The notes: generated by a model not told the origin, from the letters alone. DNA of 64,000 bases from Dictyostelium discoideum (GCA_000004695.1 CM000151.3:1696001-1760000); one strand, 5' to 3'. Shown: positions 55,987 through 60,272, numbered from the stretch's first letter. Made by a program: numbers and translations.

Positions 55987-56256
55987 TTATTTTTTATTAT
56001 TATTATTATTACGGTATTCCCAAACATCAGACAATTTTTGAACAAAGAAAGCTTTGGTTGCGTCCTTTCCAGAAGTTTTGATTCCAAATTTCGAAGCAAT
56101 TTGTTTTAATTCGGCCAAACTCATTTTATCATAATCGGGTTTAGGTTCAATATTTGATGTAGTATTACTTACTCTGGAAGTGGTTTGTTGTGGTTGTTGT
56201 TGTTGTGGGGATTGTTGTTGAGATGATGAAGTTATGGTTGGAATTCTTATACTCAA
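55987..56256 (-). CDS. C-terminal coding segment carrying an SLX4 conserved C-terminal (SLX1-binding) helix-turn-helix-like motif. It probably belongs to the upstream SLX4-like gene.
   Basis: ...PDYDKMSLAELKQIASKFGIKTSGKDATKAFFVQKLSDVWEY fits the Slx4 CCD pattern (LxxxVxxYGhKP.K.R..Mh..L). The frame (B) stays open back to about 56545 and encodes typical S/T/N-rich linker sequence. Confidence 0.5.
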   Translation of the reverse strand: MSIRIPTITSSSQQQSPQQQQPQQTTSRVSNTTSNIEPKPDYDKMSLAELKQIASKFGIKTSGKDATKAFFVQKLSDVWEYRNNNNNKK

Positions 56257-56558
56257 ACCATTTGGACTTGTGGCATTTCTATTATTGTTAATGACATTGG
56301 ATTTGTTATTATCATTATTATTATTATTATTATTGGTGGATGTTATTAAATCATCAGTTGATGAGGATAATGGTTTAGGTCTATAATTAGAATATTGTTT
56401 TTGAGATGGTGAAATATCATTTTGAGCATTGAAATTTGTTGCCGATGTTAATATTGTTGAAACTGTATTGAAAGAGGTGTTGCTACTATTGTTTGTGTTG
56501 TTATTAAGTATTATTATTATTAGTATTATTAGTATTATTATTGTTATTGTTGTTGTTA

Positions 56559-59500
56559 TTATTGGTTATTATTATCTTGAGTTCTAGTTGGTAAATTATA
56601 ATCATCATAGTCATCATCATGATTTCCAATATTTTCAAATCCATTATAATCATCATCATCATCGACATTAAAGTGAAAACTATCATTTACTCTATTATTA
56701 TTATTATCATTTTGAGAAAGGTTAATTTCAAAACTTATATCTTCATCTCTTTTTCTTTCATTTTCTCTTTCTCTTTCACGTTCTTTTTCTTTTTCTTTTT
56801 CCTTTTCTCTTTCCCTTTCAATCTCTCTTTCAATTTCTTTTTCACGTTCTCTCTTTTTTTCTTTTTCTTTTTCTTTTTTCTTTTCTTCACGTTCTTTTTG
56901 TTCTTTTTCTTTCCTATCATTTTCTTTTTGATCATTTTCTTTTTTCTTTTCTTTATTTTTTAATTTTCTTCTTTTCTCTTCTCTTATCCTTTTATTAGAT
57001 GCTTTTTGATAACGATGTTTTTCTTTACTATAATCATCACTAATGAACTCACTTTCACTATTACCATAATCGCTACCATTATCACTATCATTATCATTAT
57101 CACTACCACCACCACTACTATTACTACTTTCACTACTTTCTGTATAATCATTATATGTTCGCTTCTTTAACTTTGGGGAAATTGATTTTTGATTATGGTG
57201 ATTATGGTGATTATGATGATGATGATGATATTTATTTGGAGTTTGATGATATTGATTTTTTGGGGTGGTATGATAATAATAAGGGTGTTGTTGTTGTTGT
57301 TGTTGTTTATCAGGTGATATTGGTATTTGAAATTGTGTTAAAATTGGAATACTAGTTGATTTTAATTTATGATCATTGGTATTGATATCATTATCATCAT
57401 TATTTAGTAATATTACAGAAGTATATTTTATATTATATTGATTTTTCAATTGTTGAATTGCCAAATCCTTTTCAATTGTAAATCTACCAACATTACTATA
57501 ATATTCATTCTCCAATTCTTTAATACCCTTTAAAATTCTATCTCTTTCATCATTTACAATCTTTGAGAATTTATTTGATATTCTATTAATTTCAAGCAAA
57601 AATTGTTTCATATCATTACTATTACTATTATTATTTAAATCAATAATTGATACATTATTTTCAATATTAATATTTTCATTATTAATATTAATATTATTAT
57701 TATTATTATTATTATTATTATTATTATTATTATTATTATTATTATTATTATTTATTGTTTCATTTATTGTTACATCATTAACATTTTGTTGTTTTTGTTG
57801 GTTTCTTGGTGAATCTTCTTTTTCCTTTTTTTGTTGTAATTGCTGTTGTTGTTGTTGTTGTTGTTGTTGTTGTTGTTGTTGTTGTTGTTGTTGTTGTTGT
57901 TGTTGTTGTTGTTGTTGTTGTTGTTGTTGTTGTTGTTGTTGTTGTTGTTGTTGTTGTTGTAATTGTTGTTGTTGTTGTTGTAATTGTTGTTGTTTTTGTT
58001 GTTGTTGTAATAATTGTTCCTCTTTTTGTTGTATTCTTTGTTGTTGTTGCTCAGTTTGTTGAGAACTTAAATAATAAAGATCTTTATTATCTTCTTCCCT
58101 ATATCTTGATATATCCCAAAGGGATGATTTTACGGGTGTATGCTTTTTAGAGAGTTTACTCTCATAGAATTTAGGTGTTGGTGATATTTCAAATCTATTG
58201 TTATTATTATTATTATTATTATTATTATTATTATTATTATTATTATTATTATTATTATTATTATTATTATTATTATTATTATTATTATTATTATTATTAT
58301 TATTATTATTATTATTATTAATATCATTATTTTTATTATTAAAAGAACTAAGTGAAGCTGTAGAACCAGTATTATCTAATGATGTGTTTATTGTTTTTGG
58401 AGTAGTAGATGTTGATGATGTCGATGTTGTTGTTGTTGTTGTAGTTGTAAAAGGGAATATAATATCAGCAATTTTTGAATTTCTTGTTTGTTCAGAGTTT
58501 AGTTGAGGTTGTTTTGGTATTTTAAAACCTGCCAAATCTAAAGGTGTTGATGAAATTTGTGAATTGTTTGATGAAGGAGATGGAGGAATGCTATCATTAT
58601 TGTTATTATTATTATTATTATTATTAATATTTTGACTATAGTTATTGTTATTATTATAATTATCACCATTATTATCAGATTGATTCATTGATTCCGATAA
58701 TGCTAATGCTATATTTAATTGTTCTTGATATTCATTATTATCAGTATCATTATCCATATCACTATTACTATTATTTTTTAAATCATCAGAAAAATCTTTA
58801 TCATTTGGTATCATTATTTTCTTTGACCTTTTTGTAGTACCTTTCTTTTTCTTTAAATCCAATACTGATTCATGATGAAAGAAATTTGAGGTTGTTGCAC
58901 CATTCTTTGTTGTAGTCGATCTTTTCTTTTTTGGTTTACTTGATTTATCATTATTATTATTATTATTATTATCTATATTTGGTGAATCATTATTATTTGT
59001 TGTAGTTCCTGCTGCTGCTGTTGTTGTAGTAGTTGTAGTTGTGTTAGTGGATGTATTGTTATTATTATTTGAATAAAGTGCTATTAATTCATTAGTTGGT
59101 ATTTTATTTTTCTTTGCACAATTTTTAACATGTAGATTTCTAGATTCATCAATCATTTTAGATAAATCTTTTGAACAGATTAAACAAGTTTCAGAGTTTT
59201 CTTTTGAACGACGACATTTTTCAATATGTTCTTCTTGTTTTTTTTTTGTTAATTTCGTTAAATCTTTATTACAAATTGTACAGGTATTGGATTTAATTGT
59301 ACAATTATTGGTCGTATTATTTAATTCTCTTTCGGCAGCTTCCATACATTCATTTATATGAATTTCTTTTTCTTTAGTTGTTAATGATATTATAGACATA
59401 TTACAAACACCACATTTTGAAATGAAGATTGGTTTAGCTTTTGATTGTGACCCACTTGAACTAGCAGTAGTAGCAGCAGTGGTAGTAGTAGTGTTGTTTT

Positions 59501-60272
59501 TATTGTTATCATTATTATTTGCATTTGTATTTATATTGTTACTAAGAGATGGTTGGGATATTTTTTGATTATCAATGTCGTCATTTAAAATTTCTTCGTC
59601 ATCGTCACGATCAATATCATTCTCTTCATTATCATTATCATCATCATCATCATCATTATCATCATCATCATCATCATCATCATCATCTAAATTAATAATA
59701 TCTCTTTTATTTTCTTTATCTTTTTCTTCTTTATCTTTTTCAAAACTATTATTATTGTCAGAATGTTTAGTTCCATTTTCAAGATTGTTTTGGAAATTGG
59801 TGTTGTTTGTTTTCTTTTCTCTTTCTTTTTCTTTCTCTCTTTCTTTTTCAATTTCTTTTTCAATTTCTCTCTCTTTTTCTTTATCTTTTTTTCTTTCTTT
59901 TTCAAATTCTCTCTCTTTTTCTTTTTCAATTTCTTTTTCTTTTTTTCTTTCTTTTTCAATTTCTAACTCAATCTCTTTTTCTTTTTCTTGTAATTTACTG
60001 GTTTTATCGGATCTATTACTGTGGGAGTAAGGTTTTTGAGCTTGTTCTAATTGGTCAAGTGATATTTTAGATTTTAATTTTGAAGAGGAAGAAAAAGAAG
60101 AAGAGATGTATGGCTTGACTGATGTTGGTACATTGGATTGTTGTGAACTGGTTTTTAGGTTATTGTTACTGTTGTTGTTTGAGGTATCTTCTATTGTTGC
60201 TGTTTGATGATGAAATTGTAAGGAAGGTGAAGGTGGTGGTGATAATGATGGTGATGATGGTGATGACATCAT
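56559..60272 (-). CDS. SLX4-like DNA-repair scaffold candidate, 1237 aa as a single ORF. It has three UBZ4/Rad18-type zinc fingers.
   Basis: Three CxxC-x14-HxxxC fingers (CGVCNMS...HINEC; CTICNKD...HIEKC; CLICSKD...HVKNC) in a low-complexity protein with poly-Q (more than 40), poly-N, and E/K-rich (EKEKEREKE) repeats. The stop at 56559 is followed, in another frame, by the CCD-like segment. Confidence 0.65.
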   Translation of the reverse strand: MMSSPSSPSLSPPPSPSLQFHHQTATIEDTSNNNSNNNLKTSSQQSNVPTSVKPYISSSFSSSSKLKSKISLDQLEQAQKPYSHSNRSDKTSKLQEKEKEIELEIEKERKKEKEIEKEKEREFEKERKKDKEKEREIEKEIEKEREKEKEREKKTNNTNFQNNLENGTKHSDNNNSFEKDKEEKDKENKRDIINLDDDDDDDDDDNDDDDDDNDNEENDIDRDDDEEILNDDIDNQKISQPSLSNNINTNANNNDNNKNNTTTTTAATTASSSGSQSKAKPIFISKCGVCNMSIISLTTKEKEIHINECMEAAERELNNTTNNCTIKSNTCTICNKDLTKLTKKKQEEHIEKCRRSKENSETCLICSKDLSKMIDESRNLHVKNCAKKNKIPTNELIALYSNNNNNTSTNTTTTTTTTAAAGTTTNNNDSPNIDNNNNNNNDKSSKPKKKRSTTTKNGATTSNFFHHESVLDLKKKKGTTKRSKKIMIPNDKDFSDDLKNNSNSDMDNDTDNNEYQEQLNIALALSESMNQSDNNGDNYNNNNNYSQNINNNNNNNNNNDSIPPSPSSNNSQISSTPLDLAGFKIPKQPQLNSEQTRNSKIADIIFPFTTTTTTTTSTSSTSTTPKTINTSLDNTGSTASLSSFNNKNNDINNNNNNNNNNNNNNNNNNNNNNNNNNNNNNNNNNNNNNNNNRFEISPTPKFYESKLSKKHTPVKSSLWDISRYREEDNKDLYYLSSQQTEQQQQRIQQKEEQLLQQQQKQQQLQQQQQQLQQQQQQQQQQQQQQQQQQQQQQQQQQQQQQQQQQQQQQQQLQQKKEKEDSPRNQQKQQNVNDVTINETINNNNNNNNNNNNNNNNNNNNININNENINIENNVSIIDLNNNSNSNDMKQFLLEINRISNKFSKIVNDERDRILKGIKELENEYYSNVGRFTIEKDLAIQQLKNQYNIKYTSVILLNNDDNDINTNDHKLKSTSIPILTQFQIPISPDKQQQQQQHPYYYHTTPKNQYHQTPNKYHHHHHNHHNHHNQKSISPKLKKRTYNDYTESSESSNSSGGGSDNDNDSDNGSDYGNSESEFISDDYSKEKHRYQKASNKRIREEKRRKLKNKEKKKENDQKENDRKEKEQKEREEKKKEKEKEKKREREKEIEREIEREREKEKEKEKERERERENERKRDEDISFEINLSQNDNNNNRVNDSFHFNVDDDDDYNGFENIGNHDDDYDDYNLPTRTQDNNNQ

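Follow-up and report, generated by a model that had tools for sequence, protein, structure and literature searches.

Background

The SLX4 family of nuclease scaffolds is represented by SLX4 (FANCP, BTBD12) in human, MUS312 in Drosophila and Slx4 in fungi. In human SLX4 the contact with XPF is made by L530, W531, L536, F545 and Y546, with W531 inserted into a pocket (PMC12804970), while binding to MUS81 is gated by two CDK1 sites, T1561-P and T1571-P (PMC13171456). The MUS81-binding part is described by two structures; 7BU5, in which the SAP domain of human SLX4 (residues 1558-1606) is bound to the N-terminal helix-hairpin-helix of MUS81, and 7TUJ, the phosphorylated MUS81-binding region of SLX4 (PMC13171456, PMC12804970). 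Fungal Slx4 is described as combining a SAP domain with the conserved C-terminal domain (CCD) that Pfam names Slx4 (PF09494), without UBZ or MLR (PMC11061109). Here we describe a candidate member of this family from Dictyostelium discoideum, encoded at positions 55987-60272 of a 64,000-nt stretch of AX4 chromosome 2, which is called the window throughout.

For Dictyostelium a published survey lists MUS81, XPF, ERCC1, FAN1, FANCD2, FANCI and FANCL, with SLX1 and SLX4 not on the list; according to the same source, amoebozoans have lost SLX4 and amoebae have no SLX1 (PMC11061109 supplement). In another inventory the origin of SLX4 is placed in animals (PMC3969565).

An earlier note made from the sequence had read the locus as an SLX4-like scaffold, with three zinc fingers in one long open reading frame (ORF) and an SLX1-binding CCD in a different frame beyond the stop codon. 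Our analysis leads to a related but different picture. We find it likely that the locus is a single gene for a 1,426-aa nuclease scaffold of the SLX4 (FANCP/MUS312) family, in which zinc fingers, a ubiquitin-interacting motif (UIM), a Leu-Trp (LW) block, a long helix and a SAP domain follow each other, and in which neither a CCD nor a BTB domain can be detected.

Results and Discussion

Continuity of the gene

Two ORFs of the window are exact matches to XP_645296 and XP_645310, both from AX4 chromosome 2, and all features of the gene lie on the minus strand. As read from the AX4 reference, frame A gives the 1,237-aa ORF reported earlier (60272..56559), and it ends as was described, in ...TRTQDNNNQ and a stop codon. 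Frame B has no stop codon between 56565 and 55990, a length of 192 codons, and is closed by a TAA at 55989-55987. Its extent to 55990 and its S/T/N/Q-rich linker agree with the earlier description, which had placed the opening at about 56545 instead of 56565. The C-terminal residues of frame B include ...MSLAELKQIASKFGIK..., and the end is given as ...PDYDKMSLAELKQIASKFGIKTSGKDATKAFFVQKLSDVWEYRNNNNNKK or ...IEPKPDYDKMSLAELKQIASKFGIKTSGKDATKAFFVQKLSDVWEYRNNNNNKK before the stop. The AAT/AAC run translates in the third frame to NNNNNNNNNNTNNTNNNNT and a stop, which is the poly-N reading already reported.

Frame B is coding DNA. The GC content is 29.8% in frame B against 13.3% immediately downstream, and a codon-usage score trained on the other ORFs of the window gives it +64 bits, with the five other frames at +2 or less and mostly strongly negative. 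The probability of 192 open codons at the composition of frame B is about 5e-7.

Using both flanking ORFs (638 aa and 547 aa) we found the same locus in GCA_054883475.1, an independent D. discoideum assembly, where the annotation has a single gene of 4,281 bp, free of introns and with a product of 1,426 aa. Aligned to the window it is identical at 4,281 of 4,281 aligned positions, and only two 1-nt gaps interrupt the alignment. The surplus bases of the window are a C at 56565 and a T at 56507, 58 nt apart, and both positions had been predicted from the frame analysis before this comparison was made. The C, which is met first in the reading direction, gives rise to the apparent stop codon, and the two bases together leave the last 189 codons outside the ORF, 172 of these in frame B, the SAP domain included. 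No identical protein was on record in an exact-sequence look-up of the 1,237-, 1,236- and 1,426-aa products, nor was one for another ORF next to the gene.

Because the assemblies match in this way, and because a conserved order of domains reappears once the frame is corrected, we conclude that there is one continuous gene and that two bases of the AX4 reference are wrong. Whether mistakes in the reference or mutations private to the strain, these two bases cut the gene model short. The suspicion that indels in the AAT run hide a continuous protein of roughly 1,400 aa was thereby borne out, the 1,426-aa gene differing from the window by two 1-nt deletions.

Other ways of joining the frames were considered. 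A single indel could lead from frame A directly to frame B only within 56565-56562 and would read PIITTTITIIILIIL or PIITTTITIIIL in rare codons; as this is implausible, two indels by way of the poly-Asn frame were preferred, and the assembly alignment confirmed them. As to an intron, it holds that the last 100 or so nt of frame A contain no GT, the nearest ones lying 105-131 nt upstream of the stop codon. The further statement that no phase-compatible GT..AG intron exists did not hold; such pairs are present (e.g. 56680->56463), but with poor donors (GTTTTC) and coding-like content, and they were rejected. With an intronless gene model in GCA_054883475.1 the intron hypothesis is also unnecessary.

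Over the 24.7 kb compared (window 39257-64000) we counted 83 differences between the assemblies. Almost all of these fall in intergenic DNA with A/T runs, and the coding sequence outside this gene has no substitutions. We take the two for near-identical genomes whose differences seem to stem from assembly or base calling. At 52524-53454 and 55004-55676 A<->T and G->T differences are densely clustered, which looks like low-quality sequence in one of the assemblies rather than polymorphism.

It could be argued that the AX4 sequence is correct as it stands, with genuine frameshifts, so that a 1,237-aa protein without a SAP domain is expressed and the downstream frame is a decaying remnant. The reference does read so, and the other assembly could come from a different strain or have collapsed two-base runs. 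However, this would take two independent 1-nt insertions only 58 nt apart with no other difference over 4,281 bp, in a region where 24.7 kb hold no substitutions in any other coding sequence, and two mutations account for this pattern less well than miscalled bases in a low-complexity run. Moreover, frame B has not decayed; its 192 codons are open, its codon usage is good and it contains a domain conserved at 36 bits. We therefore regard truncation in the living strain as unlikely and continue with the 1,426-aa protein.

Zinc fingers of the UBZ4 type

The three CxxC-x14-H-x3-C fingers reported earlier are present at aa 287-309, 331-353 and 363-385, where they use nine of the ten cysteines of the frame A ORF. 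The pattern was not met in any of 20,000 shuffles of the ORF, and these three are its only matches across the six frames of the window. In an alignment of 13 sequences none of the 12 zinc ligands varies, nor does the 'CAK' after finger 3. Where fingers 1 and 2 of the homologs have the Asp of a 'CLD' signature, Dictyostelium has Glu (CME) in finger 1, and its fingers 2 and 3 lack the Asp.

For a search against PDB we built a finger profile from 86 homolog fingers. The first partial matches were to the CxxC knuckle of C2H2 arrays. The sole match that covered the finger core including the H-x3-C half was human SLX4 chain 9qed_D (E=0.0029), and the UBZ of RAD18 (2mre_B) was a weak match (E=0.88). 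The matched finger of 9qed_D, ...LTLKSRTSHLKQCA, has the H(V/L)KxCA signature seen in finger 3 of the family, where Dictyostelium has SRNLHVKNCAKK, and finger 3 has this signature in common with human SLX4 UBZ-2 (...SRTSHLKQCA). Pfam gave no meaningful match on the isolated fingers. From the CCHC ligands and the single core-spanning match it is reasonable to retain the assignment to the UBZ4 type and to treat the fingers as putative ubiquitin binders.

When the finger profile was truncated to its C-terminal half (L..x..R..H...C) it matched the CCHC peptide of makorin-3, 9p2q_A (MDAAQREEHMRACIEAHE), at E=0.019, and with this profile 9p2q_A scored better than the SLX4 chain.

Homologs with collinear architecture

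We searched 1.84 billion representative proteins exhaustively with HMMER, the query being nothing but the 125-residue finger region. This returned 35 proteins at E<=1e-3, many of which have the same collinear order of fingers, UIM-like motif, LW block, helical block and C-terminal motif. They carry two or three fingers with a spacing of x14 in every case. The consensus sequences of the following blocks are (D/E)xxLxxAhAhS for the UIM-like motif, 'TPKF.ES.LSKK...LW..(A/S)S' for the LW block, 'EYY..G+..(I/V)E+D.A' for the helical block and 'MPDF..MS...LK....FG.K.G..(F/Y)M..KL..IW' for the C-terminal motif. In BLASTP comparisons of the 1,426-aa protein the fingers and the helix were aligned collinearly both with P0023 (2e-16 and 5e-7) and with P0037 (2e-15 and 1e-9).

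PF09494 was found in four of the homologs, above the threshold of 24.8 bits in P0016 (36.2) and P0014 (27.6) and below it in P0040 (24.0) and P0023 (18.9). A profile made of this region of the homologs had as its top four PDB matches 4ZDT_B, 7CQ3_B, 7CQ4_B and 7CQ2_C, all of them chains of Slx4 CCD bound to Slx1. Since homologs found through the fingers, and collinear with the Dictyostelium protein, bear a PF09494 region that matches Slx1-bound CCDs, we assign the family to SLX4. In all four the PF09494 region lies downstream of the 'MPDF...IW' motif. Four further homologs (P0010, P0013, P0022 and P0024) terminate just after this motif, as does the Dictyostelium protein.

Some homologs contain additional domains. 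The four without a CCD have a SAM domain between fingers and SAP, and P0040 combines SAP and CCD with an FHA domain at its N-terminus. P0016 (1,474 aa) has three fingers, a weak UIM match and PF09494 at 747-805, and is fused to a complete ABCG-type transporter (ABC_tran and ABC2_membrane), a fusion that probably stems from the merging of gene models in the source genome.

Four other hits are of the SNM1/Pso2 type (P0029, P0033, P0034 and P0041). They have two to four x14 CCHC fingers at the N-terminus, including one of the 'H.K.CAK' type, and show the metallo-beta-lactamase signature PAYKKI...FLTHFHSDHY. The finger cassette is common to two crosslink-repair families, the SLX4-like and the SNM1/Pso2-type proteins.

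The C-terminal domain

The earlier note had taken the C-terminal motif for the SLX1-binding CCD, and this is the part of its reading that our results do not sustain. Pfam reports SAP (PF02037) with 24.6-27.8 bits for the different query fragments (threshold 23.9), and the alignment covers only profile positions 1-24 of 37. A profile of the motif was built from seven homologs with Dictyostelium excluded, and against PDB it found 7BU5_B (E=3.7e-10) and 7TUJ_A (E=8.9e-10), followed by a next match at 0.08 and a Ku70 chain, 1jjr_A, at 0.14. Run against all stop-to-stop ORFs of the window, the same profile detected the frame B ORF only (E=2.9e-10, 36 bits; next 1.6).

The last 57 residues were modelled by AlphaFold2 (AF2) as a helix-loop-helix with a confidence score (pLDDT) of 80. 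The best Foldseek matches were SAP and LEM domains (Tho1, Hcc-1, 3'hExo, SAF-A and the SAP of FAN1) with a template-modelling (TM) score of about 0.62 and a root-mean-square deviation of 1.3-2.9 A; the E-values for this 57-residue model were not significant, and the matches are used as supporting evidence for the SAP fold only. Slx4 CCD was not among the structural matches of the model.

A CCD was also searched for directly. A CCD profile from the four PF09494-bearing homologs gave no hit in the six frames of the window or in two loci fetched from GCA_054883475.1 (best E=1.3). PF09494 was not matched in Pfam scans of the ORF or of the tail; it should be noted that this silence is uninformative by itself, because the human SLX4 SAP/MUS81-binding fragment (7bu5_B), used as a control, matches no relevant Pfam family either. 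For the yeast CCD string that had been quoted as a likeness no PDB match was found.

The rival interpretation, that the C-terminal helix-turn-helix is the SLX1-binding CCD and the protein the regulatory subunit of the SLX1-SLX4 Holliday-junction resolvase, has some appeal. The motif sits at the extreme C-terminus, which is the place of the CCD in fungal and animal SLX4, SAP and CCD, each a short C-terminal motif made of helices, resemble one another to the eye, and the lack of a PF09494 match carries little weight. Yet Pfam assigns SAP above threshold, the family profile matches human SLX4 SAP and no CCD chain, and P0014, P0016, P0023 and P0040 have a separate PF09494 region downstream of the motif that matches Slx1-bound CCD structures. 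The CCD profile finds nothing at the Dictyostelium locus, the fold search gives SAP domains and no Slx4 CCD, and SLX1 is reported to be absent from amoebae (PMC11061109). We consider this interpretation very improbable.

Hence, on these profile and domain matches, the C-terminal motif is the counterpart of the SAP/MUS81-binding region of SLX4 and not the SLX1-binding CCD. As the tail is SAP and no CCD was detected at the locus, the label of a Holliday-junction-resolvase (SLX1-SLX4) scaffold is not justified. The broader earlier claim of an SLX4-type scaffold is upheld by the collinear homologs with PF09494 and by the SLX4-type SAP.

Within the SAP region, at window positions 56151-56100 (IEPKPDYDKMSLAE), the positions of the human CDK1 sites T1561-P and T1571-P are not S/T-P, and the position of T1561 is occupied by Glu.

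Other conserved blocks

Between the fingers and the C-terminus three more blocks are shared with the homologs. The UIM-like motif is recognised by its pattern, and an equivalent motif is present at the same relative position in the homologs. In the LW block, 'SSLWDISRYREEDNKDLYYL' (SSLWDISRY-x7-LYYL) has an LW, a hydrophobic residue at +6 and aromatics at +15/+16, which is the spacing of human L530/W531/L536/F545/Y546, and the W is invariant in 10 homologs. The human MLR, or XPF-binding motif, also includes L550. Pfam gave no meaningful match on the LW block, and an LW/MLR profile searched against PDB gave nothing significant and no match to SLX4; because of this last result the XPF-binding role of the motif is one that we infer.

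The helical block at aa 888-956 was modelled by AF2 as a single long helix with a pLDDT of 83, and the model suggests that it may be a coiled coil for self-association. No BTB domain was matched by Pfam at E<=10 on the whole ORF; at the place that BTB has in animal SLX4 there is instead the conserved long helix.

The conserved core of the protein lies between two long (E/K/R)-rich repeats, of the EKEKEREIEKE type, at 59814-59987 and 56739-56993. They were not present in the homologs inspected and may be Dictyostelium-specific insertions, either charged single helices or low-complexity sequence.

Is the protein an SLX4 equivalent?

UBZ4-like fingers together with a SAP domain could also belong to a generic ubiquitin-binding chromatin protein, RAD18-like or SNM1A-like, that is not the equivalent of SLX4. 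RAD18 has UBZ4 and SAP too, the SNM1/Pso2-type proteins P0029, P0033, P0034 and P0041 have the same x14 fingers, and the Pfam domain that defines SLX4 is absent. On the other hand, no RING was matched by Pfam in the frame A ORF, which has no cysteine before residue 287 and a single one outside the fingers, and neither a Pfam match to metallo-beta-lactamase/beta-CASP nor an HFHSDH motif was found in the ORF. The SAP profile separates the SAP of SLX4 (E about 1e-10) from other SAPs such as that of Ku70 (1jjr_A, 0.14), collinear homologs carry PF09494, and finger 3 matches human SLX4 UBZ-2. A generic protein of this kind thus seems improbable.

Several points weigh against the reading that we have given. 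The corrected frame is backed by one independent assembly, and both differences collapse a run of two bases (CC->C, TT->T), as can happen by error in long-read assemblies. Three word-indexed homology searches, one querying frame B, one the whole ORF and one an alignment of fingers and SAP, found nothing, so that the homologs include no named orthologs and no other dictyostelid sequences. PDB support for the UBZ4 type is modest (E=0.0029), the XPF-binding assignment is drawn from motif spacing with a PDB profile search that was not significant, and the UIM-like motif and the helix at aa 888-956 have no Pfam or PDB match. The absence of a CCD was checked in about 73 kb around the gene, and the absence of SLX1 is taken from one paper (PMC11061109). 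Finally, since the CDK1 sites are not conserved in the Dictyostelium SAP, its regulation may differ; MUS81 binding, if conserved, may be constitutive or differently regulated.

Proposed function and implications

With these points in mind we suggest the following for the SLX4-family protein. It would be a largely disordered scaffold, brought by its UBZ4 fingers, and perhaps by the UIM, to ubiquitylated targets at crosslinks or stalled forks. By homology the LW motif would dock and stimulate XPF-ERCC1, the SAP domain would do the same for MUS81-EME1, and the long helix may let the scaffold associate with itself. There would be neither an SLX1 partner nor a docking site for one, and an SLX1-free mechanism fits the published survey that found no SLX1 in amoebae.

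The gene is probably an SLX1-independent variant of SLX4 that was missed since detection relies on the CCD. The CCD is the only SLX4 signature that Pfam can detect, and failing to find it probably explains why surveys report a loss of SLX4 in this lineage. The combination of UBZ4 fingers and an SLX4-type SAP without a CCD would mean that the scaffold exists in Dictyostelium in a form invisible to CCD-based detection.

Further, we speculate that Dictyostelium and the protist lineages whose proteins end at SAP share an SLX1-independent scaffold for two nucleases, in which a coiled coil replaces BTB and from which the CCD was lost together with SLX1, and that the UBZ-MLR-SAP arrangement, so far regarded as animal-specific, predates the split of opisthokonts and amoebozoans. 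To this wider proposal we give an even chance. If it is true, SLX4 was not lost in amoebozoans and is merely undetectable by CCD-based searches. The findings suggest that those parts of SLX4 which read ubiquitin and dock MUS81 and XPF arose before the animal lineage. For the genetics of DNA repair in Dictyostelium the gene provides a concrete candidate partner of Xpf and Mus81, and it would be a natural separation-of-function version of SLX4 without SLX1.

Coordinates and surroundings of the gene

The positions of all features are collected in Table 1.

Table 1. Features of the candidate SLX4-family gene, in window coordinates
Feature	Position	Strand	Basis or remark
Whole gene	55987..60272	-	One intronless ORF, 1,426 aa (1,427 aa when the first ATG is taken as start), after removal of 2 extra window bases
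Frame A ORF as in AX4 reference	56559..60272	-	ATG-to-TAA, 1,237 aa; premature TAA 56561-56559
UBZ4-type finger 1 (putative), CGVCNMSIISLTTKEKEIHINEC	59346..59414	-	CCHC pattern, homolog alignment, shuffle test
UBZ4-type finger 2 (putative), CTICNKDLTKLTKKKQEEHIEKC	59214..59282	-	CCHC pattern, homolog alignment, shuffle test
UBZ4-type finger 3 (putative), CLICSKDLSKMIDESRNLHVKNC then AKK	59118..59186	-	CCHC pattern, homolog alignment, likeness to SLX4 UBZ-2
UIM-like motif, EYQEQLNIALALSESMNQ	58680..58733	-	Pattern only; equivalent motif at same relative position in homologs
Conserved block SPTPKF.ES.LSKK...SSLWDISRY...DLYYL	58068..58184	-	Candidate XPF-binding (MLR-like) motif
Conserved helical block, aa 888-956	57405..57611	-	BLASTP vs P0037 1e-9, P0023 5e-7
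First extra base	56564..56565	-	Window CC vs C (AAT AAC[C] AAT); frame A -> poly-Asn frame
Asn/Thr-rich linker, NNNNNNNNNNTNNTNNNNT	56508..56563	-	In window, readable in third frame only
Second extra base	56506..56507	-	Window TT vs T (AAT ACT[T] AAT AAC); poly-Asn frame -> frame B
Frame B coding segment, S/T/N/Q-rich linker then SAP domain	55990..56506	-	GC, codon score, open-frame statistics, translation
Predicted SLX4-type SAP/MUS81-binding region, IEPKPDYDKMSLAELKQIASKFGIKTSGKDATKAFFVQKLSDVWEYRN	56008..56151	-	Pfam SAP, family profile, SAP fold; 6 residues from C-terminus

The gene is neighboured by two intronless ORFs on the plus strand, of 638 aa (60945-62858) and 547 aa (49284-50924), which are leucine-rich repeat-like with no Pfam hit on record. 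Their exact sequences were found in GCA_054883475.1 only and not on the AX4 contig, and the AX4 gene models of these two ORFs probably differ as well. The 3.5 kb between this gene and the next annotated one are gene-free by annotation and contain, at 54417-54581, a pure (ATT)n microsatellite with about 55 units. One of the assemblies has a unit more than the other, and similar tracts at 11857-12013 and 18580-18748 cross-match the microsatellite. A tRNA scan of the 64-kb window found none.

Comparison with known systems

Two other repair proteins resemble the Dictyostelium protein in part. RAD18 likewise has a UBZ4 finger and a SAP in one protein, but it has an N-terminal RING E3 and a single UBZ, and the SAP of the Dictyostelium protein is of the SLX4 type. 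SNM1A/Pso2 (DCLRE1A) is similar in the x14 CCHC fingers found at the N-terminus of the SNM1-type hits; unlike the Dictyostelium protein it ends in a metallo-beta-lactamase nuclease domain with the HFHSDH motif.

Fungal Slx4, as known from S. cerevisiae, S. pombe, C. glabrata and T. terrestris, has the SAP domain and the role of a nuclease scaffold in common with the Dictyostelium candidate. The remaining layout is reversed, as the fungal proteins combine SAP and CCD without UBZ/MLR (PMC11061109), whereas Dictyostelium has UBZ and an MLR-like motif without a CCD.

Human SLX4 and Drosophila MUS312 are compared next. All are long, mostly disordered scaffolds with N-terminal CCHC fingers of the UBZ4 type, and finger 3 has the H(V/L)KxCA of human UBZ-2. 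With human SLX4 the Dictyostelium protein also shares an LW...aromatic motif with XPF-binding spacing and a SAP homologous to the MUS81-binding SAP of 7BU5 and 7TUJ. It differs from the animal proteins in having three x14 fingers instead of two and a long helix instead of BTB, and in that no CCD/SBD, hence no docking site for SLX1, was detected, the protein ending 6 residues after SAP. Nor has the Dictyostelium protein kept the S/T-P sites through which CDK1 gates the binding of MUS81 in human SLX4.

The uncharacterised protist homologs form two groups. P0014, P0023, P0040 and P0016 have the collinear x14 UBZ fingers, UIM-like motif, LW block, helix and SLX4-type SAP of the Dictyostelium protein, but they keep PF09494. 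P0010, P0013, P0022 and P0024 have the collinear blocks and end right after SAP as in Dictyostelium, from which they differ by the added SAM domain.

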